Positions 23,829 through 51,518 of a stretch of 64,000 nt of DNA are shown in pieces. Source of the stretch: a virus (taxonomy: Duplodnaviria; Caudoviricetes); the IMG/VR virus record IMGVR_UViG_3300021431_000012, positions 11,699-75,698 of that record; one strand, 5' to 3'. How positions within the stretch are numbered: position 1 is the first letter of the stretch; each line of letters begins with the position of its first letter. A model generated the notes under the pieces. That model saw only the letters and a program-made list of their open reading frames with translations, was not told the DNA's origin and made no database searches. Position numbers and translations under genes: made by a program.

Positions 23829-24338
23829 TTAAGCACTTGTTTTCTTACCGATAATCTTGTAGAGGTGGTCTGTCTCGTTGCTATCTGTGTAGACAAGCGA
23901 GCTAATGGTAACTGAATAGTTCAGTGCGCCATCCTCGTCCTTCTTGATAGTACCGATGGTAAGACCACGATAGATGACAAGCGATGCATTACCACGGCTA
24001 AAGTCAAGTTTCCACTCGAACTCGTTAGTGGTGGCGGCAACGGCTGCCTCATACTCGTCGGCTGCGCTAGATGTAGCGGCGGTAGCAGAACCACCGAATA
24101 CTGCTGGAAGCTCCGCGAGGTCGTAGTTTGCAAGTTCAAACGTCATGGTGACGGGATTACCCTGATAGAAGATGTCGAAGGGTGAATCGTAGAACTCGGC
24201 TTCAATCTCGGTGCTATCTGGTTCGTCCTGACCAATGGTAAGACCCTTCAGAACGCCCATAAACTTGGTGTAATCATCACTAGAACCTACTGCGCGATAG
24301 CCCAACTCAATAGGCTTCAAAGTTGTTCTCTTTGCCAT
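23829..24338 (-). CDS. Major tail (tube) protein
   Basis: 169 aa, beta-rich, synteny between neck genes and chaperone, followed by a terminator. Confidence 0.8.
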   Translation of the reverse strand: MAKRTTLKPIELGYRAVGSSDDYTKFMGVLKGLTIGQDEPDSTEIEAEFYDSPFDIFYQGNPVTMTFELANYDLAELPAVFGGSATAATSSAADEYEAAVAATTNEFEWKLDFSRGNASLVIYRGLTIGTIKKDEDGALNYSVTISSLVYTDSNETDHLYKIIGKKTSA

Positions 24339-26107: not shown

Positions 26108-27391
26108 TTAAGCGTCTGCGGTGGCAATGTCCACTACAACGTGGTACGGCGACTCGGTGAGGACGGGTGCATAGCGACCGATAACGTCGGTGTGATAGGA
26201 CTTCAACATTCCATTCGGTGTGACCTTGTTAATCACATAGAGGAAATTCTGAACCTTTGCCAACGAGAACTGGATGCCGCTGTTGACCTCGCCCGACTGC
26301 ATGAGCTGAACGTCTGCGGTCTTTGCGTGAACAACAACACCTGCCATGCCAAGAGGACGGAGTACAACCGTGTTGGGCTTCCAACCACGAACCGTAGTAG
26401 TAGTGGTGATACCTTGGACGGTTTGCTGCTCGCGAACAATGCGAATCGGCGAAATCTTGGAAATCGGCGAACGGCTATATTCAACAAGTTGCTCCCATGT
26501 GATAGAAGAAACCTGCGTCGAGGACTGACCATTCTGAACGATAACCACCTTGTCCGTGCCATAAAGGGCAATGTAGCGATTGACCTCGGCAATGAAAGCG
26601 GCGTTCTTCAGAAGAACATTCACTACGGTATCCCAAGGAATATCCCACTCGAACGGAGTGCCATCAGGGATGTAATTAGCGTTCTTAAAGTCTTCCTCAA
26701 TCTTGCGCATCTGCTCGGGGATGTCGGCTGCGGCGGCTGTCCACACCGATGCGCCTGCGGTCTTGTAGTTGGCAAGGGGAATGTAGGCATTTTGGTTGGT
26801 GATAACACCGCTAAAGCCTTGTGTGGTAGCCGTACCACCGCCAACTTGTGTAAGTGCGGTTGTGTTGCTATAAGCACCACCACGCGAAAGAACCATAGCT
26901 GCCATGTTCGACAGGCGGAGGTTGTGCGACTTGATAAGGTCGGCAACGCCACGAACAAAGCCTACAACAAGATTTTGGTCGCTTGCGTTGAGTTCGCGAA
27001 GACGAGCCTGGAGTTCCAACTTGGACATAGACGTTTCGAAAAGACCCTTACCATACTGGTAGATAGAGCCCGTTTTCTCCGTCCAACCCTCGTTGTCAAG
27101 TTGCATCGTTTCGGACAGAGGAGCCATTGCGTCTGCCATAGGAATGGCGCGGTTGATGCGTTGGCGAACAGTCCATGCGGGATTCTTCTTGAGGTCGGCA
27201 AGTTCAACGTCATACTCGTTACCTTCTACGGCAAAATGCTCCTGCCAGAAGAAAGAATTCTCTTCGATTTCGATAGTGTTGTCAATAAGCGTCTGGAGGA
27301 AACCTACGTTTGTTCCGTCCATAAAGCCACGCTGATAGAGCTTTTCAATAGCCTCATCGGGTGTCCATGCGTATTTATAAGCGTTAGGCAT
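26108..27391 (-). CDS. Major capsid protein (HK97 fold)
   Basis: 427 aa, downstream of scaffold and decoration genes, strongly biased high-expression codon usage. Confidence 0.85.
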   Translation of the reverse strand: MPNAYKYAWTPDEAIEKLYQRGFMDGTNVGFLQTLIDNTIEIEENSFFWQEHFAVEGNEYDVELADLKKNPAWTVRQRINRAIPMADAMAPLSETMQLDNEGWTEKTGSIYQYGKGLFETSMSKLELQARLRELNASDQNLVVGFVRGVADLIKSHNLRLSNMAAMVLSRGGAYSNTTALTQVGGGTATTQGFSGVITNQNAYIPLANYKTAGASVWTAAAADIPEQMRKIEEDFKNANYIPDGTPFEWDIPWDTVVNVLLKNAAFIAEVNRYIALYGTDKVVIVQNGQSSTQVSSITWEQLVEYSRSPISKISPIRIVREQQTVQGITTTTTVRGWKPNTVVLRPLGMAGVVVHAKTADVQLMQSGEVNSGIQFSLAKVQNFLYVINKVTPNGMLKSYHTDVIGRYAPVLTESPYHVVVDIATADA

Positions 27392-27413: not shown

Positions 27414-28076
27414 TTAAATCCAGAAAATGCCGTCAATGTAGGAACGGTTCTTGGCAAGAACGTACGAGGGGAGCGGCTGCATGCGAGCGACCCATGCTTC
27501 CTTGTCATGTACGGTGCTAATCGAGTAGTTGGCATTCTCGATACCATATCCCTCGGTGGGAAGGAGGTCGCGGTCTGCCTCAATGAAAGTGTTCGGGTTC
27601 TTAACGAGAACCTCGGCGGACTGGCTAGCGGCGGTTCCTGCTGCTTCAACAAGAATTGCACCAGCACTTGCGGTAAGAGCCGTGTCCGTGGTCACAACAA
27701 ACTTTGCGTTTGCTGCATCATAGCTTACTGCGGTCACCTTTGCCGACTGGCCAGTACCCGTAGCGGCGTTGGGTGCTACCATAAGGAGCATGCCAACCTC
27801 GGGTGCATCTGAATAACCGTCAGCCTTGATGTTGATTGTGGTGCTACTTGCGGAAATCACCTCGAACGAACGGAAGATGTAGCATCCTACGCCAGGCTTG
27901 TATTCTACAAGCTGAGCAGCCCACAAGTGACCAAATCCCTTGTTCGGATTAAGAATAGTGCCGCCGAGAAGCACGTTCTTGCGCGACTCGCCATTGCTAT
28001 CTTTAACCCAAACCCACTTACCACCACGCACCTTGCGCGATGTTTCAAAGAAATAGGCTAAATTTGTTACTTGCAT
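27414..28076 (-). CDS. Head decoration/cement protein
   Basis: Lies between scaffold and MCP; Ala/Thr-rich beta protein. Confidence 0.6.
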   Translation of the reverse strand: MQVTNLAYFFETSRKVRGGKWVWVKDSNGESRKNVLLGGTILNPNKGFGHLWAAQLVEYKPGVGCYIFRSFEVISASSTTINIKADGYSDAPEVGMLLMVAPNAATGTGQSAKVTAVSYDAANAKFVVTTDTALTASAGAILVEAAGTAASQSAEVLVKNPNTFIEADRDLLPTEGYGIENANYSISTVHDKEAWVARMQPLPSYVLAKNRSYIDGIFWI

Positions 28077-32248: not shown

Positions 32249-32608
32249 ATGGGATGGCTTGAATTTGGATTAAGTATTGCCACATTGGTTTTCGGAGGCG
32301 GTTGGTTTGTGTACTATCGAGCCAACAAAATGAAAGCCTATGGTGATGCTTGGGAATCACAACAACATGTGTACCAAAACACTATTTCCGACTTGGAGCG
32401 TTCTTGTGAGTTCATTCGTAATGATAGGGATTTGCTTCGTAGAGAAAATGAGGAACTTAGACGTGAAAATAGAGAATTGCGTGAAAAGATAAACCATCTT
32501 GAAACAGTGATTCTAGACATTCGCAAAGAAATGGCTAGGCAAGGAAGGCGCATCGAATCTCTCACAAATAAAACCAAGAAATCAAAGAAAAAAGAGGAGG
32601 AAGAATAA
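32249..32608 (+). CDS. Holin-like membrane protein (N-terminal TM plus coiled coil)
   Basis: LSIATLVFGGGWFVYY TM segment; coupled to the endolysin by a TAATG overlap. Confidence 0.45.
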   Translation: MGWLEFGLSIATLVFGGGWFVYYRANKMKAYGDAWESQQHVYQNTISDLERSCEFIRNDRDLLRRENEELRRENRELREKINHLETVILDIRKEMARQGRRIESLTNKTKKSKKKEEEE

Positions 32609-33051
32609 TGGAATTACTATTAAAAAGGATAGCACGCAAACCTACCTATACCATTGGCAACCTATATGTCAATGGAAAGAAAGTTTGTGACACGCTAGAA
32701 GACTATGATAGAATCCATTTTGGCGGCTCTAAAATCCCAGGAAAGACTGCAATCCCATGTGGGCGATACGAAGTGGTGTTGAACAACTATTCGCCCAAAT
32801 TCGGCAGCAAAGAGCCTTATCGCTCAATATGTGGCGGATGTGTGCCATTGATTAGCAATGTGCCAAACTTTGTTGGCGTGCGCATTCACATTGGAAACAA
32901 GGAAAGTGACACAGACGGTTGCCCGTTGGTAGGCTACAACAAAAGAGTCGGCATGGTTCTAGATTCGCGACAGGCATTCGCAATGCTTATGAACAAGTAT
33001 CTTACGCTAGCGCGTAATAGAAAAGAAAAGGTATATATAACAATAAAGTAG
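32608..33051 (+). CDS. Endolysin, DUF5675 family
   Basis: YTIGNLYVNG...CDTLED...KIPGKTAIP.GRY...GVRIHIGN...DTDGCPLVG. Confidence 0.8.
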   Translation: MELLLKRIARKPTYTIGNLYVNGKKVCDTLEDYDRIHFGGSKIPGKTAIPCGRYEVVLNNYSPKFGSKEPYRSICGGCVPLISNVPNFVGVRIHIGNKESDTDGCPLVGYNKRVGMVLDSRQAFAMLMNKYLTLARNRKEKVYITIK

Positions 33052-34382: not shown

Positions 34383-35189
34383 ATGGCAAAGTACATTGGA
34401 AAATCGGGTTTAACCTATGCATGGACACAAATAAAGGCTTTTTTAGCCAATTTTGTGAAAATCACAGTTGTTAATGACGTGAAAACGCTTACAGTTGGCA
34501 ATGTGTCAGTGGTGATTGCTGGTAAAACATCACAATTAACCAACGATTCGGGTTTTATTACTATTGATGATGTGCCAGAAGGCGCATCTGCATCATCTAC
34601 TACGCCTAAAATGGATGGAACTGCTGCCGTTGGTACGGAAACTGCTTTCGCTCGCGGTGACCATAGACACCCAACGGACACCTCACGGCAAGCCGTCATT
34701 GACGACCTTGACACCATTCGTAGTGGTGCTGCGGCGGGCGCTACTGCTTACCAATTGCCGTCAACGGGTATTCCAGAATCTGCACTTGCAGATGCGGTTC
34801 AAAACAAACTTACGGCGGCTAGCAATGCTATTCCGTCAAGTGCAAAAGGCGCGGCTAACGGTGTTGCATCGCTAAATGCAAGTGGCAAGATTCCTTCGGA
34901 GCAGCTTCCGTCTTATGTGGATGATGTCATTGAAGCCTATGCCCGTAGCGGTCAAACGGAATTGTCGTCAACATGGCTTGCAAGCGATTCGGCTGGTTCA
35001 AGCGTTATCACACCCGAGTCTGGAAAGATTTACGTTCTTATGGCGGACTATCCAAATGCCACAAATCCAACCTATACGGCAAACACACAATTCCGTTGGG
35101 GTGGGTCTACCTACATCAAGCTAAATGATGGTGGCATAAGTGAAATGTCTACCGACGAAATGGATGAGGCGACAAACAATTGGACATAA
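34383..35189 (+). CDS. Tail fibre protein
   Basis: TPKMDGTAAVGTETAFARGDHRHPTDTS motif, SYVDDVIE motif. Confidence 0.7.
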   Translation: MAKYIGKSGLTYAWTQIKAFLANFVKITVVNDVKTLTVGNVSVVIAGKTSQLTNDSGFITIDDVPEGASASSTTPKMDGTAAVGTETAFARGDHRHPTDTSRQAVIDDLDTIRSGAAAGATAYQLPSTGIPESALADAVQNKLTAASNAIPSSAKGAANGVASLNASGKIPSEQLPSYVDDVIEAYARSGQTELSSTWLASDSAGSSVITPESGKIYVLMADYPNATNPTYTANTQFRWGGSTYIKLNDGGISEMSTDEMDEATNNWT

Positions 35190-39366: not shown

Positions 39367-39419
39367 CGTGTTTCAGAGTAACTAATAATAGGTAAAAAGG
39401 CATTAAAATGGTGTTGAAT

Positions 39420-39821
39420 ATGAAAAAAGCATTGGTATTTATAACAATAGCATTCATGGTGCTATCTTGTGCAACCAAAACCAAAATCGAATATGTAGAT
39501 AGGGAGGTTGTTAAGGATAGAATGCATTATGTTCATGACACGTTAAGGGAAATCACCCGTGACACCATTGAACATAATGTGTTTATGCGTGGTGACACCG
39601 TGTTTGATGTCAAGTATGTCAAGAGCGTACAATGGAAAGACAAAATTGTTGAAAAAACCGACACGATTATCCGTGATTCTATCCAAGTGCAAGTGAAAAA
39701 AGAAATTGTAGAAAAGAAAGTAATTCCAAAATGGTGCTACATTTCTTTGCTTATTTGTGGATTATTTGCTATCTTTGCAATTATTAAGTTGATTTTATGG
39801 AAACAAGTTCATTCGGTTTAA
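39420..39821 (+). CDS. Putative unimolecular spanin
   Basis: Lipobox VLSC after a signal peptide, beta-rich middle, C-terminal TM WCYISLLICGLFAIFAIIKLIL. Confidence 0.6.
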   Translation: MKKALVFITIAFMVLSCATKTKIEYVDREVVKDRMHYVHDTLREITRDTIEHNVFMRGDTVFDVKYVKSVQWKDKIVEKTDTIIRDSIQVQVKKEIVEKKVIPKWCYISLLICGLFAIFAIIKLILWKQVHSV

Positions 39822-42800
39822 ACCAAAATTTCCAGATATACAAGGATGTGGACGGTGTGCAAACGCCGTTCCACAATCTTGTTTTAAGAAAGTCGGTAGT
39901 TGATAGTGTAGTAATGTCATTGGGTGACAAAATCACTGGTGATGTCTATTACATTAACAACCACTTAGATGTATCAATGCAAGAATATGTCGTTTACAAT
40001 GGCATTAAGTATTCATTGGTAAATCCACCTACAATTGTAAAGGAAGGCATTGTTAGCGACAATTCGGAGTTGCGTGGCATGACCAAATACTCGTTTGAAT
40101 TCTACCACCCGATGTATATGCTATCAAGCATTCCTTTTACTGATGTTGCGGTTAGTAACGATGAAGCAAGGTATCTTTCCGAGAATCGCAACTTTAGTTG
40201 GATGGGTTCACTTGTTGACTATGTTGCAAAGCTAAACAAGAATCTTGAAAACACGGAATGGGTAGTAGCCATTAGTGATGATAGTGGCGTGCAAGCCAAA
40301 AGATTCGTTCTAAGCGACGTTCTTTCTTTCGACAATAACTTTATAAGCGACGCGTTAAAAACCGCTTACGACACGTGGGAAGTGCCTTTTGTGATAGATA
40401 AGACCGATGCTTATGGTAACAACAAAAAGTTTTTGATTCTTTTTGGCTTGCCTAGCAATGAAATCTATGAAACAGATTCGCATGGTGACCCAACCGAAAC
40501 GCCCTTTGTTTTCCACTACGGAAAAGGCGTCGGCTTAAAGAATAATTCTCGCACACCGAAGAACAACAAGATAGTTACACGCATTGTTGGCTATGGTAGT
40601 GAAAACAACATTCCCTATGGCTACCCACAAATTATTTGGCAAGGTGACCAATCATGGGAATACACATTGAACAACACGCCTGGTGTTCAAGAAATAAGCA
40701 TTGGTGGCGAACTTGTTTCGGCAACATCATATCCTATCTATGACGGCATTGTTGGTGGTAGGCATGTAAGACTAATCAAGCACCCGTTCCAAAGAAACCA
40801 CCTTATGCCTAGTGTCTACACGGATAGGGTGAACAAAAAGGTAAATCCTTTTGCCGCGAATTTCAATCCTAACATTGAACTTGTAGACTACTATGATGCG
40901 GACGGCACTTATCCAAACGAGATTAATCCGCTAGCCCCGTCTTGCGAAATACACGAATTTGAAAAGATAAAGCCAGAACTTGGAACGGCAAAAATTATAA
41001 GTGTTGCGCCTTATGATGAAGCAGCAGAAAAATACATTTCATACTCCACATTTGAACAATACATCAATGCTATTATTGATGGCGACAACACGCCACAACG
41101 GGAGCATGATGTGCTAACAACACTTCTTGACGAAATTAACCATGGTACGGAAACTTACCACGACTCTTTCAATGGCGGCACATACGGCTACGAACTAGAC
41201 ATGACTAGCGATGAAACATATTACTACATCAAGTATGTTTCTAGCAATAGCAACTTTGAATACATCGTTCTAAAAGATGCGCATGCAGTTCCGCCCGTTG
41301 TTTGGGATGACACAATGGATGATGACGGCAACTATAAGCAAAGCTATTTTAAGCTAACATTGCCGCGTCTTGACTTTGACATTTACGCTTGTGCATCTAT
41401 CACGGAAGAAATGTCTATTGCCATGCGTAGTGGTGCATGCATTGGCTGCACATTCCAAGTGCAAGTAGATTGGGAGGATTACAAGAAGAATTTCTTTAAT
41501 GTCGATGGCGTTTTCGACCCGATTCCACATACAACCGACGATGACGGTCACGTTCGCGACATTAATAAGTACCCGAATAGCGAAAACGGTTCTATCACAC
41601 TTATTGTTCAAAAGGACAACAATACTTTTGGCATATTAATGCCTAACACATACCAATATCCGAAAGCGGACGATGACTTTGTGATTCTTGGTATATCATT
41701 GCCTACATCATACATCACAAACGCTGAGGAAAGACTAGATGAGGCTATGCGTGAATACATGTTGGAAAACAATGTGTATTACTACGACTACCCTTTGAAA
41801 TTTGACGAGCATTTCCTTGCCACACACCTTGGCATTCTTCGCCAAATGCGAAACAACACTATTGTGCGATTCCAATTTGGCAACGAACCACCGATGGCAC
41901 TATATATCAAGCAGCTTACGGTTAAGTTCGGTGAAAGTGTATTGCCGCAATATGACATCACGCTCACCGATGATGTTGAAATTGTTCTCAATCAAATTGG
42001 ACAAGTAACGGAAGATGTCAGTCGCCTTCGTGTGCAATTAGCAGAAATCCAAAAATATTATCTTGGTGACTATGTTGATGCCATGAATGGCAAGCTATCA
42101 CGCATTGTTGATGACGTTGCTCTTGGTCGTATCACATTCCAACAAGGATTGAATTCTATTGGCAACATAATCTTGCATAGCGAAATCAAATCCAACGGCT
42201 TTGTTTCTGGCATGGATGGTACTGGCCGTGGATGGCGAATAGACCAACTTGGTAATGGCGAATTAGAAAGTCTTCGCGTCCGTTCCTACTTGGAGGTTGT
42301 GGAATTGCTTATCAATCGTCTTCAAGCACAAGAGGGTGATACATTGTTCACAGACAATGACCAAATTGAATACGTCAAAGAGAAAGTAGTCAATGATGTA
42401 ACGTACTACATTCTAACACTAAAGGAAAAGTGGGAAGGTTACTTTACGTCGCAACAAGAAGGAAATATTGTCAAAGGAATTATCAACACGTTGGCAGCAA
42501 ACTATGGTAATGTAAGTGATATTACCGAAGCGCAATGTGTTGAAGCAGATGGACAAAACAAATACTACACATCATGGATGCGTGTTGTCAACCCGTCACT
42601 TGCCGAAGAAACCGTTGGTAGAAACCAAATTGTTGTAGTCCTTTATGGTGATTCAGATGTTCCAGCACAAAGGAATTTCCCGCCATGCGAATTGATGACT
42701 ATTGCTAGGTTTGGTTGCGAGGATGCGCCCGATGGCGCTACCGATGCTCAAAAGGCTAGCGTGGAACGTAGACAAAGACTTTTTTCTATTTCCGTTTCTG

Positions 42801-45800
42801 ACGGTCGTATTTCAAAGCTAACGGGTGTCAACAAGCCGATTCTTGAAGAATGGAACTATGGAACAACGCTTGGCGTTATTCCTGATTTTATCAACAATTG
42901 GGCTATCAAGGAGCGTCTTATTGAGGGACGTGATTACTTGTATGCACAAGGTGTTATTGTCGGCGATTTTATCAAGGTAGACATCAATGGAGCGCCGCTT
43001 GTCAACTATGTTGATGTTGGCGAATGGGTAGACGGGCAAGAATATCTTCACAACGAGTACAATCCCGTAAACCTACAATGGGAAACGCATGATGTATGGC
43101 ACAATCAAGCCAAATGGCGTTGCGAACAACACCAACCCGTTAAAAGTGGCTCTACATTGAGGTATTACGAGCCGCAAGACAATTCGCCCTATTGGACAAA
43201 GCTACTTAGTAGTGGCGAAGGTTCACCAGTGCCATACTACCATGACCAATTCTATAGCTGGTCGGCTTATGCTTCAACTAATTCGCAAACAACGCCTCCG
43301 TCCGATGCCGTTTGGTCACGTTCCATTCCAACCGCAACATCGGGCAAGCCGTACCTTTGGTTAAAAGACCAATTAATGACATGGAATGATAGCACAAAGG
43401 AATACGACGCAGGTGCTATCTACTACACAAGAATCACTGGTGAGGATGGAACGGGTATTGCCGTTAAAGGCTCTGTTGTTGCCGTTGTAGGTAATGTTTC
43501 AAGCCTTCCGTCAACCGCAAACAACGGCGACCTTGCTATCGTCACGTCAAGTCCATACATCTACATCTATCAAAATGGGCAATGGCAAGAGCGTGGCGAT
43601 ATTGCCGACGTGGGCGATTGCTATGTTTATGATGGTGATGGTCACTTGTGGGTATGGAATGGTTCATCATGGCAAGATGTCGGTGTGTTTAGGGGAGAAC
43701 CAGGCGTGTCAAGTTACATCCACATTGCTTGGGCTAACGAACTTGATTTAACCGACCAACAAACTGGCAAAAAATACCCGTCAACATTCGTTGTAACAAA
43801 AGAGCCTAATGAAGAATTTCGTTACATGGGTGTTTATGTTGATGACAATGCTGGGGCTGACTCATCTGATGGTACGAAATATGATTGGTCTGAAGTAAAA
43901 GGTAGCGACGCTCCTTATGTGACTAGTTCGCAATCCATATTGCTTTTTGACACAAACAACGATGGGGTTGCGACCTCGACATCTTCGCAGCAATGCACCA
44001 TAAAATTATTCGTAGGTGGCAGTCAAGTTGATGTGACAAATGTTACAATACAAAAGCCTATTTATAGCACAGCAACATATGTTATCGACAATGGGGCTGT
44101 TGTGTTAACGATTTCTGTAAATATTAGCACGCCAGAATCGGCATTTGGAGGTCTTTATGGCATTACGGTTAAAGGCACTAAAGATGGCAAAGAATACACG
44201 GCATACGCATCTATTACGGTTGCGGCAAATAAGGCTGGTGCAGGTGCCATTTTCCTTGACCTTGACAATGAAAACGATTCCATGTTGTATGGTTCTAGTG
44301 ATGACGAAACACCCGTTAGCGGCAATGTTATTTCACAAGGCTACATGTATGACAATGGCAATGATGTCACAAGCCAAGTGTCGCAATGGTCAATTGTTGA
44401 ATCATATGGCTGTACCTATAGCACATCTATTCAGAATGGAAAGATGACCATTACTGGCATGACGGCAACATCTGGATATGCCGTTCTTGAAGCAACTTAT
44501 TTAGGGGTTAAATATCGTGCAAAGCTAACCCTCAAAAAGCTCGTTGGTGTAGATAAATACGAAATCATTGTCAACCCTAACGCATTAGGATATTCTACCG
44601 ACACAATATCTACACCACAGCAAATCCAAATACAAGTTTATAAGACTACGATAACAGGTGAAAGACAAAGAATAACGGCTGCAATACCAGCCGATTATGG
44701 TCTGTATTACTATCAAGGAAATTCAACGTCTGGCACACGAATCACAAGCTATAGTTCTAGTGGCGATTATTGGTATTTTGTGGCAACCGACGTGTCTTCA
44801 TTGACGCAATATCGTGTGGCATTGCTTGATGAAAACAATGAAATTCTTGATTCGGAAACAATTCCCATTACAAAGGTTTCAAAGGGCGCGGATGGTGATG
44901 CTGCGGTGGCTTACCAACTTCTACCCACAGCAACCGCATTGAACTTTTCTCGTGGCAATGATGGTGAAACGTTTGTGCCAAGTTCATTGAACATTTCTTG
45001 CGGCTACATGAAAATTGTTGGCGAAGAAATCAAAGACAAGGATGACGGCACAAACGTGCAAGGCACTGGGCTTACCATTGATGGCTACAACTTGTATTTC
45101 CGTAGGCTTAACCAAAATGGAGTGCCGATTGCTTCATCATACACAACGGAAGGTTGGGATTGGACTGGCGGCACTGGAACTACCGCATATTTTATAAAGC
45201 ATAATGGTGTTATTGAGGTTGATGCATATAGTAGTCAAAGTGCTATTGAATTTTGTCTTAGTAGCAACACTCCAAATGCCACAACTAGTGATGACATTAT
45301 TGCTATACTAACCGTTCCAATTACGCGAAGTGGCGAAAAAGGTAGCATCGGCAAAATGGGAAAAAATTTCTATTATGCTGGTGAGTGGAATGAAAGTGAT
45401 GGTGGTTCGTTTGAGGTAACCGACTATGAAACCCCGTATTTCATGTATAACAACAAGTATTGGGTGTGGGTAGGTGACAATGGCACATACTCTATTAATT
45501 CCACTAACCGCCCATCTAGTAGTAATTCCGATTGGGAACTTATGGTTACCGATTTCAAATACCTTATTACCGAGGCTATGTTCACAAAATTCGCCAAACT
45601 TGGTGCTGGTATTTTTAACGAAGATTGGATGTTTTCTAGTCATGGAAATGCCTTAGTGACTATCGCCCTTACAGCTAGTACATCATCTAGCGAATCATGG
45701 GCACGAATAAGTGGGCAAACGGCAATTCAAGTCAAGCAGGGGGCTACTTATTCATTTGTCATTAATTGCAAGACTACGGCATCTGGAAATACATATTCTA

Positions 45801-46909
45801 TTCGTCCGTATATTGACGATGGTTCTGGCTATGAACAATCACAAGCACGAATTTGGATAACGTCAACGACGGCGCAAAATTACACATTCAATTTTGTTGC
45901 TGAAAGAACTGGTACATTACTATTCTATCATTATGGCAATGGCACAACATATTCCATAAGAACATATAATAGTTCGGAATACAACAAGGTTACTCCGTCA
46001 TTTATGAATGCCGATGAAAGAATATTGCTTGATGCACCAAGAGAAATTAACACAACAACACACACAAGGATTGTTGAAACATCCGTGACTGTTGTTAGTG
46101 GTCTCACGTATAGAATTACGGTAAAAGGATATGCAAATAGTGGAACTTTGCGCGTTAGACCATATTTTAAAAATAGTGGTTCTGCCGCATCTTCTAGTTA
46201 CTTGTCAATATCATATAGAACATCAACCACAATCACATACACGTTTACACCAACGTCAAGTGGTGATATAACAATAGATGGCTATATGGCTACATCTGGA
46301 ACGTCGGGGTATGTGGAATATATGTCAATAAAAGCAACCAATCCTTTCATTCCTCGTGTCGCTATTGATTGGCGTAGTGGTTATGCCCACTTCGGCGGTG
46401 ACAATATTCGCTTTAACCCAGACGGCAGCGGTTTCCTTGCAAACAAGAATATTACTTGGGACGAAAACGGCAATTGTATCTTTAGCGGACTGCAAATGAA
46501 ACGAAAGACGGTTGTTAATTCAAGTAATTATCTAAATTATTTAAAGCCAGATGATACATGGGGTTATTCGGAATATGTTTTTGACTTTGAAAAAGCATCA
46601 ACTTGGATGGAAATAGAGTCTTTGCCAAGCAACTTTTCTGGCATTTTAATGCCTATTAGCGGTGATTTTGTCCGTTCACTAGTTGGACAGTCTATATTAT
46701 TATACAACAAGTCTAGCGTTACGATTCCAATCACTGGGAGAACATTTTGGGAAAATGGGAAAACAACAATCCCCGTAACAAACCCTAGCTTTAATAGCAC
46801 GACAATAGCGCCTAATTGCTTTGTGAGATTTGAATGTAAAATTACTATTGACGGGAATGACAATGAATTACTTTATTGGAGTTGTGTAAAAGGAAACATA
46901 TCTTCGTAA
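39797..46909 (+). CDS. Large tail protein (Tal/central fibre, 2370 aa)
   Basis: N-terminal hub region (GVGLKNNSRTPKNNKIVTRIVGYGSENNIP), Ig-like and CBM-like repeats toward the C-terminus. Confidence 0.8.
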   Translation: METSSFGLNQNFQIYKDVDGVQTPFHNLVLRKSVVDSVVMSLGDKITGDVYYINNHLDVSMQEYVVYNGIKYSLVNPPTIVKEGIVSDNSELRGMTKYSFEFYHPMYMLSSIPFTDVAVSNDEARYLSENRNFSWMGSLVDYVAKLNKNLENTEWVVAISDDSGVQAKRFVLSDVLSFDNNFISDALKTAYDTWEVPFVIDKTDAYGNNKKFLILFGLPSNEIYETDSHGDPTETPFVFHYGKGVGLKNNSRTPKNNKIVTRIVGYGSENNIPYGYPQIIWQGDQSWEYTLNNTPGVQEISIGGELVSATSYPIYDGIVGGRHVRLIKHPFQRNHLMPSVYTDRVNKKVNPFAANFNPNIELVDYYDADGTYPNEINPLAPSCEIHEFEKIKPELGTAKIISVAPYDEAAEKYISYSTFEQYINAIIDGDNTPQREHDVLTTLLDEINHGTETYHDSFNGGTYGYELDMTSDETYYYIKYVSSNSNFEYIVLKDAHAVPPVVWDDTMDDDGNYKQSYFKLTLPRLDFDIYACASITEEMSIAMRSGACIGCTFQVQVDWEDYKKNFFNVDGVFDPIPHTTDDDGHVRDINKYPNSENGSITLIVQKDNNTFGILMPNTYQYPKADDDFVILGISLPTSYITNAEERLDEAMREYMLENNVYYYDYPLKFDEHFLATHLGILRQMRNNTIVRFQFGNEPPMALYIKQLTVKFGESVLPQYDITLTDDVEIVLNQIGQVTEDVSRLRVQLAEIQKYYLGDYVDAMNGKLSRIVDDVALGRITFQQGLNSIGNIILHSEIKSNGFVSGMDGTGRGWRIDQLGNGELESLRVRSYLEVVELLINRLQAQEGDTLFTDNDQIEYVKEKVVNDVTYYILTLKEKWEGYFTSQQEGNIVKGIINTLAANYGNVSDITEAQCVEADGQNKYYTSWMRVVNPSLAEETVGRNQIVVVLYGDSDVPAQRNFPPCELMTIARFGCEDAPDGATDAQKASVERRQRLFSISVSDGRISKLTGVNKPILEEWNYGTTLGVIPDFINNWAIKERLIEGRDYLYAQGVIVGDFIKVDINGAPLVNYVDVGEWVDGQEYLHNEYNPVNLQWETHDVWHNQAKWRCEQHQPVKSGSTLRYYEPQDNSPYWTKLLSSGEGSPVPYYHDQFYSWSAYASTNSQTTPPSDAVWSRSIPTATSGKPYLWLKDQLMTWNDSTKEYDAGAIYYTRITGEDGTGIAVKGSVVAVVGNVSSLPSTANNGDLAIVTSSPYIYIYQNGQWQERGDIADVGDCYVYDGDGHLWVWNGSSWQDVGVFRGEPGVSSYIHIAWANELDLTDQQTGKKYPSTFVVTKEPNEEFRYMGVYVDDNAGADSSDGTKYDWSEVKGSDAPYVTSSQSILLFDTNNDGVATSTSSQQCTIKLFVGGSQVDVTNVTIQKPIYSTATYVIDNGAVVLTISVNISTPESAFGGLYGITVKGTKDGKEYTAYASITVAANKAGAGAIFLDLDNENDSMLYGSSDDETPVSGNVISQGYMYDNGNDVTSQVSQWSIVESYGCTYSTSIQNGKMTITGMTATSGYAVLEATYLGVKYRAKLTLKKLVGVDKYEIIVNPNALGYSTDTISTPQQIQIQVYKTTITGERQRITAAIPADYGLYYYQGNSTSGTRITSYSSSGDYWYFVATDVSSLTQYRVALLDENNEILDSETIPITKVSKGADGDAAVAYQLLPTATALNFSRGNDGETFVPSSLNISCGYMKIVGEEIKDKDDGTNVQGTGLTIDGYNLYFRRLNQNGVPIASSYTTEGWDWTGGTGTTAYFIKHNGVIEVDAYSSQSAIEFCLSSNTPNATTSDDIIAILTVPITRSGEKGSIGKMGKNFYYAGEWNESDGGSFEVTDYETPYFMYNNKYWVWVGDNGTYSINSTNRPSSSNSDWELMVTDFKYLITEAMFTKFAKLGAGIFNEDWMFSSHGNALVTIALTASTSSSESWARISGQTAIQVKQGATYSFVINCKTTASGNTYSIRPYIDDGSGYEQSQARIWITSTTAQNYTFNFVAERTGTLLFYHYGNGTTYSIRTYNSSEYNKVTPSFMNADERILLDAPREINTTTHTRIVETSVTVVSGLTYRITVKGYANSGTLRVRPYFKNSGSAASSSYLSISYRTSTTITYTFTPTSSGDITIDGYMATSGTSGYVEYMSIKATNPFIPRVAIDWRSGYAHFGGDNIRFNPDGSGFLANKNITWDENGNCIFSGLQMKRKTVVNSSNYLNYLKPDDTWGYSEYVFDFEKASTWMEIESLPSNFSGILMPISGDFVRSLVGQSILLYNKSSVTIPITGRTFWENGKTTIPVTNPSFNSTTIAPNCFVRFECKITIDGNDNELLYWSCVKGNISS

Positions 46910-46957
46910 TAGCGCACAAAGAAAACTTTCTGTTCTTGTACTATATCTATATTGTTG

Positions 46958-46989
46958 AAGGTGTTAGATTTTGGTCTAGCACCTTTTTT
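46958..46989 (+). terminator. Intrinsic terminator
   Basis: AAGGTGTTAGA-TTTTGG-TCTAGCACCTT-TTTT. Confidence 0.7.
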
Positions 46990-47109
46990 GCTTTTTGACA
47001 CTTATGGACACAAAGTAGTCCAAGCATGCTATAATGTGTTTTTGGCTTACATTTGCAAAAGTAACGCGTTATGTAGTCAAAATTTAAATCATTTAAAACA
47101 AAAAACATT

Positions 47110-48078
47110 ATGGCAGAAATTTATCAACTTCCCGAAAATGGGAACAATGGTAATGCAACCATTCCTTTCTCTATTCCTATTGGCTTTGGTGGCTATGGAA
47201 ATGGTGGCATGTTTGGCAATGGTAATGGCTTTAACTCCATCGCCGACCTCTTTGGTCTTGCAATCATCGCATCCATGTTTGGATGGGGTGGTAATGGCTT
47301 TGGTGGTCTTGGCGGTGGATGGGGCGGCAATGGCGGCGCAGGTTTCATCAGTAATCAGCTCAACAACGATTCTGGCCGCGAGTTGCTCATGAATGCTATC
47401 ACCAACCAAGGCGAAGCATCGCGCACGGCAATTCAAACTCTTTCCACAATGCTTGGTCAGGACTTTAACCTTGTGAACGCAGGTATTCAGTCGGCTCAGA
47501 ACACGCTCAACCAAATTGCGAACACACAGGGCATGTCAACCTTGCAACTGATTAACGCCGTCCAGGCTGGCGATGCCAACCTTGCTAGCACCATTCAAAA
47601 GTGTTGCTGTGAGCAACAGCTTGCCACATGTCAGCAGACAAATGCTTTGCAAAATAGCATCAATGGCGTAGGTCAGCAAGTTGCCGCAAAAGCAGCAGCA
47701 GACCAGCTTTCGATGTGCCAGCAGACGTATGCGCTTACCGACACCATGAACCGTAACTATCTTGCTCTTGACAACAAGATTGATGCTCTTGAGTCTAGTC
47801 GCAAAGACCGTGAAATCACTAGCCTTACGGCGCAGGTTGCCAAACTTGAATCGCAGAATTTTACTGCAGGCATCGTTCAGCAAGCCGTTGCTCCACTCAA
47901 CGCATCACTTAACTCGCTTGCCCGCGAGGTTGATGACATTAAGTGCAAGCTCCCCGAAACCGTAAACGTGCAATACCCCAATCTTGTTGCCATAAACGCC
48001 ACTCCGTATGTTAGTGGTGGTTTCTACCCCAATGGGTATTACGGCAACGGCTTCGGTGGCAATAACTTTGTGTTCTAA
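47110..48078 (+). CDS. Gly-rich/coiled-coil protein with CCC motif, function unknown
   Basis: Gly/Asn/Phe-rich N-terminus with a hydrophobic segment, QKCCCEQQ, long heptad region, Tyr/Gly/Asn C-terminal tail. Confidence 0.85.
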   Translation: MAEIYQLPENGNNGNATIPFSIPIGFGGYGNGGMFGNGNGFNSIADLFGLAIIASMFGWGGNGFGGLGGGWGGNGGAGFISNQLNNDSGRELLMNAITNQGEASRTAIQTLSTMLGQDFNLVNAGIQSAQNTLNQIANTQGMSTLQLINAVQAGDANLASTIQKCCCEQQLATCQQTNALQNSINGVGQQVAAKAAADQLSMCQQTYALTDTMNRNYLALDNKIDALESSRKDREITSLTAQVAKLESQNFTAGIVQQAVAPLNASLNSLAREVDDIKCKLPETVNVQYPNLVAINATPYVSGGFYPNGYYGNGFGGNNFVF

Positions 48079-48102
48079 ATTTATGGCATAGGAGGTAAAA
48101 GC

Positions 48103-48447
48103 ATGAGTTGTAATTGTAATAACTGCAATATAACAATTAACGCAGGTGGTGAGCCGTATATTGCGAATACACAAGTTGTCGTAGGAACTGACACCGTGAA
48201 CATTGCACTTGGTTGGAGGCGTATTCAGCCGATAGGCAAATTCATTGTACGCATGGAGAATCCTATTCCGTCTGATGCAACAACTACATCTCCAATAACA
48301 CTTACATTGAATGGTGTTACACGTCCACTAACCCTTCCAAACGGTACGGCAGTGACTGTGGCGGATATTCTAAACGTGAGTGTTTTCGAGGTTCTGAATG
48401 ACAAGTTCAACGGAATCTTGGCTCTTATGTCAAGAACTATTGTGTAA
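48103..48447 (+). CDS. Small beta-rich protein (MSCNCNNC N-terminus)
   Basis: ORF track. Confidence 0.75.
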   Translation: MSCNCNNCNITINAGGEPYIANTQVVVGTDTVNIALGWRRIQPIGKFIVRMENPIPSDATTTSPITLTLNGVTRPLTLPNGTAVTVADILNVSVFEVLNDKFNGILALMSRTIV

Positions 48448-48479
48448 AACTAGTGATTAACAATTAAAACAAAACAAAA

Positions 48480-48992
48480 ATGGACTTTCAAAGTTTAGGT
48501 AACGGCAATCCGTTTTATGTTCTCAAAAAAGGAGAAAAGCCAATCCTTGAGGTTGGTGTGGTGAAATCAAAGTCGCAACCACGCGCGAAGTTTCCGACGC
48601 AAACGCCAAACATCATGGCTGGCGTTCAAATGCAGCAGGTTGTTGACGTAGTAGTAACAATCAATGGTCGCGATGAAACATTTAGCGAAATACCTATCAA
48701 TGTAGAAATCGCAGCCCGTGGAAATGACACGTTTAGCGGTAGTCGTGAAGCTATGTTGCAAGCCGTAGATGCTATGTTACAAACATCTAAAAAAGCACTT
48801 GACCAAATCCCTTACCACAAGGCGGTAATCTCCGAAAGCGAGAAAATGCTTGAAGTGCTTAATCCACGTTATGCCGAGGAAAAGAAACAAGCAAGGACTA
48901 TCAAAGCATTAGAGGAAAGGCAAACCGCTACCGATGCAAAGTTGGATAGCATTCTTTCTATCTTGCAAAAACTTGATTCACCGTCTGCTTAG
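48480..48992 (+). CDS. Hypothetical protein (beta N-terminal domain plus coiled coil)
   Basis: ORF track. Confidence 0.8.
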   Translation: MDFQSLGNGNPFYVLKKGEKPILEVGVVKSKSQPRAKFPTQTPNIMAGVQMQQVVDVVVTINGRDETFSEIPINVEIAARGNDTFSGSREAMLQAVDAMLQTSKKALDQIPYHKAVISESEKMLEVLNPRYAEEKKQARTIKALEERQTATDAKLDSILSILQKLDSPSA

Positions 48993-49029
48993 TCTTTTGA
49001 AAGTCCAATCTAAAAAAACATCAAGAACT

Positions 49030-49272
49030 ATGGCATGGATTTTTGTTGACAAGGAAGATGGTGGCTCACAGGAGAAGATGCGCCAGCAGATGCGTCGTTC
49101 AATGCGTAGCGGTGGTTATCGCTCTTATGGCGGAACTAGTGGCGGTAGTGGAAGCTATCGTGATGGTTATCGCCAAGGCTATAAGCACGGATGGGATGAC
49201 AAGGAGATGGAAATGGAAGATGATGACATGGAATATCGCCGTCAGCGTGATAGCCGTGGTCGTTATATGTAA
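49030..49272 (+). CDS. Disordered Arg/Gly/Ser/Tyr-rich protein (80 aa)
   Basis: MAWIFVDKEDGG...RSGGYRSYGG...YRRQRDSRGRYM; start moved from 48934. Confidence 0.75.
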   Translation: MAWIFVDKEDGGSQEKMRQQMRRSMRSGGYRSYGGTSGGSGSYRDGYRQGYKHGWDDKEMEMEDDDMEYRRQRDSRGRYM

Positions 49273-49289
49273 TCTATCTTATTCAAATG

Positions 49290-49317
49290 GGGTGGGGTTC
49301 TTGCCCTACCCTTTTTT
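49290..49317 (+). terminator. Intrinsic terminator inside the cassette
   Basis: GGGTGGGG-TTCTTG-CCCTACCC-TTTTTT. Confidence 0.7.
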
Positions 49318-49344
49318 ATTTATCAATTAACAAAAAAAAAGAAA

Positions 49345-49761
49345 ATGGGAAATACATTATCTAACTATTGCATACCAGAGGACATGGAGCAATATTTATC
49401 TTTCTATGGTTGGCATTTCAACAAGAACTTGTGTAAGTTTGCAACCGATATGATGAAAAGGGAAGATAATGCGTCTGGAATGCTCAAGAAAATTACTCCA
49501 ATGAAAATGGAGGAATTGAAAGAATTGCTAGAAAAGCATAAAATAGAACTAGAACCGAATGATTGGTATGATGCACTTTATCTAGCAAACATGGTAAAGG
49601 CTGACTATTGGGGAAGTAGCATTGAAGACGAGGAACACATGGCGCGTTACATTGAAGATGTTATTTGCGATGTAGACGGCTATGAGGGAATCGTGTTTTC
49701 GCGCTTTCTTGCCGATTGTACTTGTAAAGGCGTTGTAATATTTTGGGACATGATGATTTAG
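49345..49761 (+). CDS. Conserved hypothetical protein (YLSFYGWHFNKNLC...KADYWGSSI)
   Basis: ORF track; motif recalled from Bacteroidales prophages. Confidence 0.8.
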   Translation: MGNTLSNYCIPEDMEQYLSFYGWHFNKNLCKFATDMMKREDNASGMLKKITPMKMEELKELLEKHKIELEPNDWYDALYLANMVKADYWGSSIEDEEHMARYIEDVICDVDGYEGIVFSRFLADCTCKGVVIFWDMMI

Positions 49762-49765
49762 GCTT

Positions 49766-50152
49766 ATGATTACAAAGTATTTAGAGGTCGGTGACGGTGA
49801 TTGGGGAATCTTGTTGAACTACAATTTCGACGAAACGGATTACGAAGACATTTATGCCGCATTATATTCTTTTGGCATGAATGACAAGAATATTCGCAAG
49901 TCCCTTAACATTCTTTCCGCGCCGAACACTGGTATGACGATTTCCAATGATGCTTTGCGCATGACAAACATATATATTGGAAAGCAAACGTCGGTAGGTG
50001 AATTTTGGAGCACCATAAACCACGAACTATATCATGCCACAACCGCGATTATTGATTACTATGGTGAACCATACGACCAAGAGCCAGCGGCATACCTACA
50101 AGGCGAATTAATGCGGCTAGTGGTAGAGGAAATTGGCGAGCCATGCTATTAA
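49766..50152 (+). CDS. Small HExxH (zincin-like) protein
   Basis: INHELYHAT followed by EPAAYL. Confidence 0.6.
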   Translation: MITKYLEVGDGDWGILLNYNFDETDYEDIYAALYSFGMNDKNIRKSLNILSAPNTGMTISNDALRMTNIYIGKQTSVGEFWSTINHELYHATTAIIDYYGEPYDQEPAAYLQGELMRLVVEEIGEPCY

Positions 50153-50204
50153 ATTCCTTTCTAAGCGACTTTTATAATCAAAGGTGGGTGGTTATAGGGA
50201 AAGG

Positions 50205-50254
50205 CAAAGGAAAGCCGTTAGACGCAAAATAAACGCGGTCTACGGCTTTCCTTT
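50205..50254. terminator. Bidirectional terminator between converging operons
   Basis: AAAGGAAAGCCGT (50205-50217) pairs with ACGGCTTTCCTTT (50241-50253). Confidence 0.8.
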
Positions 50255-50263
50255 TATGTGTTA

Positions 50264-51116: not shown

Positions 51117-51518
51117 TTAAAATAATTCTGGTTGTTTACTATTTTTTGTTTCCACACCGCCAACTTCGACCAACGTGAATTCAATGCGAGGATTATTCTT
51201 GTCAATAAATTTATTGGCAACAATCTTTACGCAGTTTCGGTCATTCTTTATTGCGTTGCACGTTTGTAGACAGTCAAGCAAGCATTTTAATGAGTTGTCA
51301 AGGTCTGGTTGGTTGGAATGAAAATACACGTCAACATAAAGTTCAAAAAAGCCATTAATATTCTTGTTGCGATACGCTCCGCATTGAAGATAGAACTTTT
51401 CTTCGTATTCTTTTAATGCTTTCGTTTTCGCCAAGCTACCGTGCCCCTTAATAGTGATAATTTTATATTGGTTGGCTTTAGACGGCGCGTTACCCAAAAT
51501 AACTTGTTCGTGTTTCAT
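51117..51518 (-). CDS. rusA: RusA-like Holliday junction resolvase
   Basis: PSKAN, PDLDNSLKCLLDCLQ, IKNDRNCVKIVANK. Confidence 0.85.
   Translation of the reverse strand: MKHEQVILGNAPSKANQYKIITIKGHGSLAKTKALKEYEEKFYLQCGAYRNKNINGFFELYVDVYFHSNQPDLDNSLKCLLDCLQTCNAIKNDRNCVKIVANKFIDKNNPRIEFTLVEVGGVETKNSKQPELF

Follow-up and report, generated by a model that had tools for sequence, protein, structure and literature searches.

The window analysed here, a 64,000-nucleotide stretch of viral DNA, covers bases 11699–75698 of the 75,698-bp virus record IMGVR_UViG_3300021431_000012, which has direct terminal repeats. Six plus-strand genes (g1–g6) lie downstream of a 2370-aa tail-type gene and run convergently with minus-strand replication and recombination genes, such as that of a RusA-like resolvase (Table 1). 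All six open reading frames (ORFs) listed in an initial annotation are present with the lengths given there, and the start of g4 is backed by an M-x-x-I-F-V-D motif that is kept in its homologues. The six genes form a real operon with its own promoter. The cassette is a portable late accessory operon of Bacteroidales phages and, in the explanation favoured below, lies outside the core virion and lysis set of the phage that carries it here. Its flanking genes in the window (the C-terminus of the tail gene, a 206-aa gene and RusA) are mostly different in related loci. The initial placement between the tail and replication modules holds for this phage only; in other genomes the cassette neighbours holin and endolysin genes or a capsid gene.

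The cassette is bounded by hairpins, begins with a Bacteroidetes-type −7 promoter box, TACATTTG, and is divided by a further hairpin with a T-run. The long hairpin at its 3′ end folds with −27 kcal/mol (z = −4.99), and 0 of 200 shuffled sequences folded equally well. One box alone could be due to chance, as TAnnTTTG occurs 55 times on the plus strand of the window against about 34 expected. Of 69 distinct related loci, however, 61 have the motif 60–80 nt ahead of g1, over a background of 0.07 per 150 nt, and for this reason we set a chance origin of the single box aside. A hairpin with a T-run precedes g5 in 24 of 64 loci, compared with only 2 of 67 for g3 and 4 of 64 for g6. From the gene order, the box and the hairpins in related loci, we conclude that the cassette is a conserved operon with two transcription units, g1–g4 and g5–g6. 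The promoter box and the flanking and internal terminators of the initial annotation were all located, the two hairpins with T-runs at 46957–46986 and 49289–49312.

Searches for related loci yielded 79 viral loci for g1, 13 for g5 and, later, 58 loci in bacterial genome assemblies. By tblastn, the order g1-g2-g3-(g4)-g5-g6 is kept in nearly all sufficiently long loci (~95 viral and 58 genome loci), down to ~30% identity in g1. Co-conservation of the genes had been set beforehand as the test of a coherent system, and the genes were found to be co-conserved. The family of g1 is large: of 8000 candidates examined in public metagenomes, more than 6300 scored as clusters at 90% identity, and 731 representatives were obtained at 50% identity; all of its clusters are unnamed or misnamed. 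The carriers are gut and rumen Bacteroidales phages in their thousands, crAss-like ones included. Within Crassvirales, g1 homologues are found in the Suoliviridae (cr273_1, cr109_1 and cr1_1), in the Steigviridae (cr116_1) and in an epsilon crAss-like phage. Others occur in the cultured Bacteroides uniformis phage C3_41T2LP (74 kb; host strain MB20-41) and in Dulem virus 40. Unrelated 60–75 kb Bacteroidales phages carry the cassette too, as do large contigs from cultured isolates of Bacteroides, Parabacteroides and Paraprevotella. Cassette genes also lie on a few contigs that were assigned to Bacilli, Clostridiales, Treponema or Synergistales; these are metagenome-assembled genome bins or short contigs, so that Firmicutes prophages are unconfirmed as carriers. 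We found none of the cassette genes in crAss001; cr116_1, of the same subfamily, has the cassette.

Judged by its capsid gene, the phage in the window is not a crassvirus: no capsid match to crAss001 gp32 was found, although an empty search is weak evidence, and its portal is of the SPP1 type. More generally, the cassette co-occurs with unrelated capsid, portal and endolysin types and is therefore independent of any one virion architecture.

The main argument that the genes work together is that their adjacency survives rearrangement in genomes that share little else. In cr109_1 and cr1_1 (Suoliviridae), the gene for the DUF7841 protein (g5, see below) has moved to a position directly upstream of g1 and is still adjacent. 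In the Parabacteroides phage PD691P3, which is without g1, a g3 homologue and a DUF7841 gene are neighbours two genes ahead of the endolysin gene. We asked if the six genes might instead be merely syntenic, with g1–g4 and g5–g6 (or g3 plus g5) serving separate functions. An internal terminator between g4 and g5 would suit such a division, and DUF7841 genes lie beside endolysin genes in Parabacteroides phages that are without g1; g5 without g1 is also found in Bacteroides fragilis phages. In addition, cr116_1 has g6 and is without g5, cr273_1 has g5 with no g6 detected, and two allele classes of g5 (~70% and ~35% identity) vary independently of g1. Separate functions nevertheless seem very improbable to us, as g5 and g6 accompany g1–g3 in otherwise rearranged genomes, the DUF7841 gene of the Suoliviridae has switched sides without leaving the cassette, and g3 and g5 stay adjacent even where g1 is missing.

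Table 1. Features of the cassette, its surroundings and related loci. Positions refer to the window unless a locus or accession is named.
Feature	Position	Strand	Remark
g1	47110–48078	+	322 aa
g2	48103–48447	+	114 aa
g3	48480–48992	+	170 aa
g4	49030–49272	+	80 aa
g5	49345–49761	+	138 aa
g6	49766–50152	+	128 aa, HELYH
Terminator-like hairpin	46957–46996	+	13-bp stem, then T-run TTTTGCTTTTT; ends upstream tail-gene transcript
Bacteroidetes-type −7 promoter box	47048–47055	+	TACATTTG (TAnnTTTG); direct reading of the sequence
Internal terminator-like hairpin and T-run	49289–49319	+	between g4 and g5; divides cassette into g1–g4 and g5–g6
Long hairpin, candidate bidirectional terminator	50204–50256	.	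junction with convergent minus-strand replication genes
Tail-type gene	39797–46909		2370 aa; upstream neighbour
RusA-like resolvase gene	51117–51518	−	convergent with cassette
Putative capsid gene	26108–27391		reference for codon usage
ORF, candidate scaffold or decoration protein	27414–28076	−	codon-usage score 0.72
ORF, candidate Ig-domain head decoration protein	23829–24338	−	codon-usage score 0.67
ORF, probable lysis pair	32249–32608	+	119 aa
DUF5675 ORF, probable lysis pair	32608–33051	+	147 aa
ORF, candidate unimolecular spanin	39408–39821	+	137 aa
Weak gp29 match	34485–34808		in ORF 34383–35189 (268 aa)
Genes with in-frame TAG in recoded crassviruses	L001 / NC_055892.1 50529–51017 and 49102–49998; NC_055904.1 12163–13038		
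Cassette-bearing locus of BFG-119 'plasmid unnamed1'	L176 / NZ_CP103284.1 14254–38889		cassette beside int
HTH/excisionase-like or repressor/antirepressor genes	L155 7296–7595; L098 5975–6614; L101 4170–5530		immediately upstream of g1
Reverse transcriptase gene	L155 5001–6254		adjoins tail protein gene

Two lines of evidence bear on when and how strongly the cassette is expressed. In recoded crassviruses, in-frame TAG codons occur in cassette genes, six of them in the g3 homologue of cr109_1 and one or two in g1 of cr109_1 and cr273_1. TAG recoding marks late structural and lysis genes (Crassvirales review, PMC10136315), which places these cassette genes in the recoded late class. Codon usage was scored for 49 ORFs against the putative capsid gene; g1 ranks third and g4 fifth, and the other four cassette genes have average scores, like the lysis genes. 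Because their codon usage is capsid-like, g1 and g4 are probably made in structural-protein amounts, and for the first gene this agrees with the resemblance noted initially. Two other ORFs with top codon-usage scores lie near the capsid gene; one is a candidate scaffold or decoration protein and the other a candidate Ig-domain head decoration protein.

These results also bear on whether the cassette is a moron that is expressed from a resident phage and alters the host envelope through lysogenic conversion, superinfection exclusion or a carrier-state function. Such a role would be in keeping with the promoter-genes-terminator architecture and its host sigma-type box, and with the contigs of cultured isolates mentioned above. 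On the circular, 61.9-kb 'plasmid unnamed1' of Bacteroides thetaiotaomicron BFG-119, moreover, the whole cassette lies beside int at the end of the late region. We consider this reading very unlikely all the same. The cassette is widespread in virulent crassviruses, in-frame TAG codons (up to six, in cr109_1 g3) permit translation only in the late lytic phase of recoded phages, capsid-like codon usage is unexpected for a gene expressed in lysogens, and PADLOC gives no match for any of the six proteins (E ≤ 0.1). The lysogenic-conversion module suggested initially fits the integrase neighbour in the BFG-119 element, but virulent crassviruses with in-frame TAG typical of late lytic genes do not fit it.

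With its BACON tail genes and its genes for a holin, a GH108 endolysin and an integrase, the BFG-119 element itself resembles a temperate phage. In several lineages (L155, L098 and L101), a helix-turn-helix (HTH)/excisionase-like or repressor/antirepressor gene lies immediately upstream of g1, which hints at dedicated regulation of the cassette. The 66.6-kb contig L155 (bin 'Bacilli') also contains a reverse transcriptase gene (PHROG 1423, 1e-92) that adjoins a tail protein gene; it looks like a cassette-bearing phage of uncertain host with a diversity-generating retroelement.

The g1 protein is acidic (pI 4.5). Its N-terminal stretch is Gly/Phe/Asn-rich, nearly uncharged and contains zero basic residues, and a short hydrophobic helix (residues 44–56, IADLFGLAIIASMFGW) is flanked on both sides by glycine-rich arms. 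Membrane insertion is plausible: the core is only weakly hydrophobic in this protein, but it is a Trp/Ile/Leu/Phe block in distant homologues. There follow a helical block (residues 83–125), which is the best-conserved part of the protein, and a coiled coil of ~200 residues that contains C165-C166-C167. This CCC cluster is retained in 93 of 104 full-length representatives of the family. The C-terminus consists of a Pro-containing motif and a Gly/Tyr/Phe tail, the latter being Gly/Cys/Asn-rich in distant homologues. AlphaFold2, run with a 29-sequence alignment, predicted helices only, with both ends disordered and a predicted local distance difference test (pLDDT) score of 44.7; a low score is expected if the protein needs to oligomerise. 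The family corresponds to PHROG 16490 (function unknown, E 3.7e-24), and sequence and profile searches of the PDB gave no significant match for g1, g5 or g6. In four homologues (L059, L064, L067 and L072; alignment columns 240–265), tandem GFNGVQMGLN-like units are inserted in the middle of the coiled coil, so rod length differs between lineages. Longer fused forms of g1 and g5 were also searched for, and none was informative. A weak match of g1 to PHROG 3017 (E 0.004) raised a scaffolding role, which we ruled out because g1 is absent from crAss001 and the cassette pairs with unrelated capsid genes; the high-scoring 27414–28076 ORF adjoining the capsid gene is a better scaffold candidate.

Of the remaining proteins, g2 is small and beta-rich with a Cys near its N-terminus (PHROG 31654, function unknown), and its remote full-length match is a 180-aa gene in the same slot of C3_41T2LP. 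The AlphaFold2 model of g3 (pLDDT 85) has an N-terminal beta barrel resembling SH3, Tudor and EF-P domain I folds, followed by three helices that form a coiled coil. Foldseek of this model against the PDB returned nothing at E ≤ 0.001; BFVD gave matches only to uncharacterised crAss proteins, and the VIA matches to EF-P domain I and Tudor domains (Z 6.5) are a generic likeness. Homologues of g3 are present in cr1_1, cr109_1 and PD691P3, and in the ESM Atlas neither g3 nor g5 had a named neighbour at a score of at least 0.9. The g4 peptide is rich in Arg, Gly, Tyr and Met with an acidic patch and the conserved motifs MRxxMRRxMR, GYRxGYKHGWED and YRRxRDSRGR; of the six, it is conserved least and was recovered in 53 of 95 loci. 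The acidic, helical g5 protein belongs to Pfam DUF7841 (PF25223; 89.1 bits against a cut-off of 25.2, E = 3e-25).

In g6 (PHROG 1365, function unknown), W13, H86-E87-x-x-H90, E106 and G113 are invariant, with H86, E87, H90 and E106 present in 29 of 29 sequences. This pattern makes g6 a candidate zincin-like (gluzincin) metallopeptidase and is compatible with a processing peptidase. Its Pfam matches are all below threshold (SprT-like in 3 of 29 members, DUF6782 in 2 and Peptidase_M78 (M78) in 1; best E ~0.01), and MPTase-PolyVal is absent among them. The labels 'PolyVal metallopeptidase' and 'RNA polymerase sigma factor' found in public records were reproduced by neither Pfam nor PDB profile searches.

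When all six proteins were searched against Pfam, PHROGs, NCBIfam and PADLOC, the sole matches were DUF7841 and PHROGs without an assigned function. The genes are already catalogued (PHROGs 16490, 31654, 28898, 38431 and 1365; crAss genome records of 2021 also carry HHpred-type labels for them), and by these searches none has a characterised relative. A literature search on DUF7841, these PHROGs, C3_41T2LP and crAss spanins found no paper treating the cassette. With genes that travel together behind a conserved promoter and have no characterised relative in these databases or the PDB, the initial view of a coherent undescribed system is upheld. Secretion of the filament proposed along with it is unsupported, as none of the six proteins has a signal peptide.

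The cassette often adjoins genes for holin and endolysin. The order in cr1_1 is pholin-x-DUF7841-g1-g2′-g3′-x-endolysin, and in cr109_1 it is holin, LysB-like, DUF7841, g1. An endolysin gene lies two genes upstream of the cassette in cr116_1 and immediately downstream in cr273_1; a holin gene lies upstream in Dulem virus 40 and, Pfam-confirmed, two genes upstream in Bacteroides sp. ET71, and several viral loci have a DUF5675 endolysin gene 1.3–2 kb upstream. By a crude count, 52 of 116 distinct loci have a small, holin-like ORF with at least two transmembrane (TM) segments in the 3 kb ahead of g1, whereas such an ORF lies downstream of the cassette in only 21 of 104.

In the window, the lysis genes are elsewhere. 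Directly after the portal gene, a 119-aa ORF with a hydrophobic N-terminus, a coiled coil and weak Rz-like or 'hol-like' PHROG matches is followed by a DUF5675 ORF that is 44% identical to the L,D-carboxypeptidase endolysin gp30 of crAss001, and the two are a probable lysis pair. A 137-aa ORF that starts with a lipoprotein signal (lipobox ..VLSC) and has a TM helix at its C-terminus, homologues of which directly follow the DUF5675 endolysin gene in L037 and L075, is a candidate unimolecular spanin with T1 gp11-type architecture. To our knowledge, spanins of Bacteroidales phages are essentially undescribed. Since its lysis genes sit elsewhere, the cassette is not the essential lysis machinery of this phage, and the spanin candidate and the lack of a lipoprotein partner in the cassette together rule out the idea that it encodes an essential spanin.

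We tentatively favour, as a possibility, an abundant membrane-associated coiled-coil assembly that acts at the cell envelope late in infection. Here g1 would be produced in capsid-like amounts and oligomerise through its coiled coil, locked by the Cys-Cys-Cys cluster, while its short hydrophobic core and glycine-rich arms would keep it on or in the host cell membrane. The small beta protein g2 and the barrel and coiled-coil protein g3 may partner g1, the Arg/Gly/Tyr peptide g4 may be an abundant co-factor, and g5 and the HExxH...E peptidase candidate g6 may mature or regulate the assembly. We infer membrane association, oligomerisation, partner binding, the protease role and the biological function itself from the sequences and their neighbourhoods. 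Because the cassette so often adjoins holin and endolysin genes, we place its action at the last step of infection, where it could serve lysis timing, envelope break-up or release. The membrane-type core and coiled coil of g1 and the independence of the cassette from virion type also speak for this interpretation.

Several observations weigh against this interpretation. The best 19-residue Kyte-Doolittle window of g1 (residues 40–58) reaches 1.42, below the usual TM cut-off of 1.6, and a basic flank is absent; in favour of a membrane segment, the core of distant homologues is a Trp/Ile/Leu/Phe block for which a hand estimate gives ~1.57. None of g2–g6 has a signal peptide, lipobox or TM helix, and no structural or homology link leads from any cassette protein to a known lysis factor. 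The codon usage of g1 points to high expression, whereas codon adaptation is low for the genes of the lysis set in the window. In this phage, 14 kb separate the cassette from the endolysin gene, and a complete lysis set, including the unimolecular-spanin candidate, is found elsewhere; crAss001 lyses its host with no cassette at all. Finally, lysis genes usually lie at the ends of late operons, and adjacency to holin and endolysin genes may reflect position alone. The slot by itself does not mean lysis, because in crAss001 the gene between holin and endolysin is that of gp29, a proven head fibre.

This last point leads to a virion-borne product, which we regard as somewhat unlikely. The g1 protein could be a non-essential coiled-coil fibre of head or tail, in which case g2 and g3 would provide an adaptor or cap and g5 and g6 would help in assembly; alternatively, g1–g4 could be ejected cargo, the g1 core inserting in the membrane and the rod crossing the periplasm. 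The genes lie within the late structural operon and on its strand, g1 and g4 have capsid-like codon usage, and the long coiled coil of g1 has short, conserved, Pro-containing motifs at its ends and a Cys cluster of the interchain type. In public records, its homologues are labelled 'outer capsid protein/viral fiber' or 'spike protein'. The cassette of cr1_1 occupies the same holin-endolysin slot as gp29 in crAss001, cr116_1 of the crAss001 subfamily has the cassette and is without gp29, and the 35 phage records with gp29 homologues showed zero overlap with the g1-homologue records among the matches listed (25 of 27). In other crassviruses, the place of gp21 and gp29 may be taken by proteins that are as yet uncharacterised (Bayfield et al, PMC10172136), and the crAss001 cargo protein C1 has a TM segment too (PMC10136315).

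Against a virion protein, phages whose capsid and portal types are unrelated have the same g1, in many cases with its ends conserved, and the non-overlap with gp29 may be phylogenetic alone. The host-type promoter and terminators, the upstream HTH gene in some lineages and the integrase neighbour in a temperate phage look moron-like. Hydrophobic Trp/Ile/Leu/Phe cores are unusual in external fibres, and the cassette also encodes a protease candidate together with an acidic helical protein and a low-complexity peptide. No sequence similarity links the cassette to gp29, gp21 or gp27: profile comparisons (hhalign) of g1, g2 and g3 with crAss001 gp27 and gp29 were negative, and gp29 and gp21 as queries found nothing in the cassette. 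In the window, gp29 matched weakly (E 0.002, 25% identity) within a 268-aa ORF that has minor-tail and peptidase PHROG matches; this is probably a shared Ig-like domain.

The low-complexity regions would suit another role, that of a matrix or condensate which self-assembles in the cytoplasm and organises a late step such as assembly or packaging. In it, g1 would act as a multivalent coiled-coil scaffold through Gly/Phe/Tyr/Asn 'stickers' at its ends and form a dense phase with g4. The two most codon-adapted cassette products, g1 and g4, are the two low-complexity ones, both ends of g1 are disordered in the AlphaFold2 model, and none of the six proteins has an export signal. Aromatic and glycine-rich ends with an Arg/Tyr-rich partner are the composition that drives phase separation in FUS-type proteins. 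Phage-driven phase separation, too, is beginning to be reported (SPO1, PMC13401047). We nevertheless consider a condensate quite improbable, as its basis is composition only and g4 is the least conserved member of the cassette. Moreover, the Gly/Cys/Asn-rich tails and far more hydrophobic core of distant g1 homologues point to a membrane or to cross-linking.

A bolder version of these ideas, which we think unlikely, is that the cassette encodes an undescribed late-infection machine, built on a Cys-locked coiled-coil g1 with membrane-active glycine/aromatic ends and served by its own adaptors and protease. It would be either a fusogen-like or trans-envelope device for release or entry, or an Arg/Tyr-Gly/Phe condensate scaffold. 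If true, this would be a kind of system without a characterised counterpart in a large share of the most abundant gut phages. Crassvirales are the dominant phages of the human gut, and g1 spans several of their families and is found in many rumen phages too. As a conserved set of six genes that moves between unrelated phages, with capsid-like expression, the cassette must give a general advantage late in infection of Bacteroidales. Its function would supply a role that is missing from the biology of crAss-like phages, be it in egress, entry, the decoration of virions or the organisation of the cell, and two culturable carriers, C3_41T2LP and the BFG-119 element, make it directly testable.

The cassette was also compared with known systems. 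The g6 protein resembles minimal zincins (SprT-like, M78 ImmA/IrrE and minigluzincins) in its invariant HExxH, the Glu 16 residues further on and its length of ~130 aa, but it falls below threshold in every Pfam model of these families. Its C3_41T2LP homologue is annotated 'PolyVal metallopeptidase superfamily', as in the MPTase of polyvalent proteins (Iyer et al, 2017, PMC5512222), whereas g6 stands alone, outside any polyvalent protein. Like the spanin Rz, g1 has an N-proximal hydrophobic segment, a long coiled coil and conserved Cys and is often encoded beside holin and endolysin genes. Unlike Rz/Rz1, the cassette has no lipoprotein partner, and plus-strand ORFs embedded in g1 are without a lipobox; the g1 segment is also only weakly hydrophobic and without basic flanks, the protein is twice as large as Rz, and from its codon usage it would be highly expressed. 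It differs from T1 gp11 in having neither an N-terminal lipoprotein signal nor a C-terminal TM helix, both of which are found in the 137-aa spanin candidate.

The crAss001 head fibres gp21 (a trimer) and gp29 (a dimer), T4 fibritin and phi29 gp8.5 are late, abundant, non-essential appendage proteins, a description that may also suit g1. The cassette differs from the crAss001 fibres in the Gly-rich hydrophobic arms of g1, its five companion genes including a protease, and its association with unrelated capsid types; the profiles of g2 and g3 align to gp29 with a probability below 1%. Class I viral fusion proteins and the P22 gp26 tail needle share with g1 a Gly/Phe-rich hydrophobic N-proximal segment, long heptad-type helices and an aromatic-rich C-terminal tail, and the CCC-x7-C near the middle of g1 is reminiscent of the CX6CC chain-reversal loop. 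This probably explains the public label 'spike protein/glycoprotein'. The likeness is one of layout only (g1 model pLDDT 45), and g1 has neither a C-terminal TM anchor nor a cleavage site.

Morons are self-contained promoter-gene-terminator units inside late operons. The cassette differs from phage morons such as lambda bor and lom in comprising six genes in two units rather than one or two genes, in its presence in virulent phages, some of which confine it to the late lytic phase by recoding, and in that no protein is like a known moron product. It resembles them in its own host-type promoter, its bounding terminators and its place at the end of or inside the late operon. Like morons, it moves between unrelated phages, and some close relatives of its carriers, such as crAss001, are without it.

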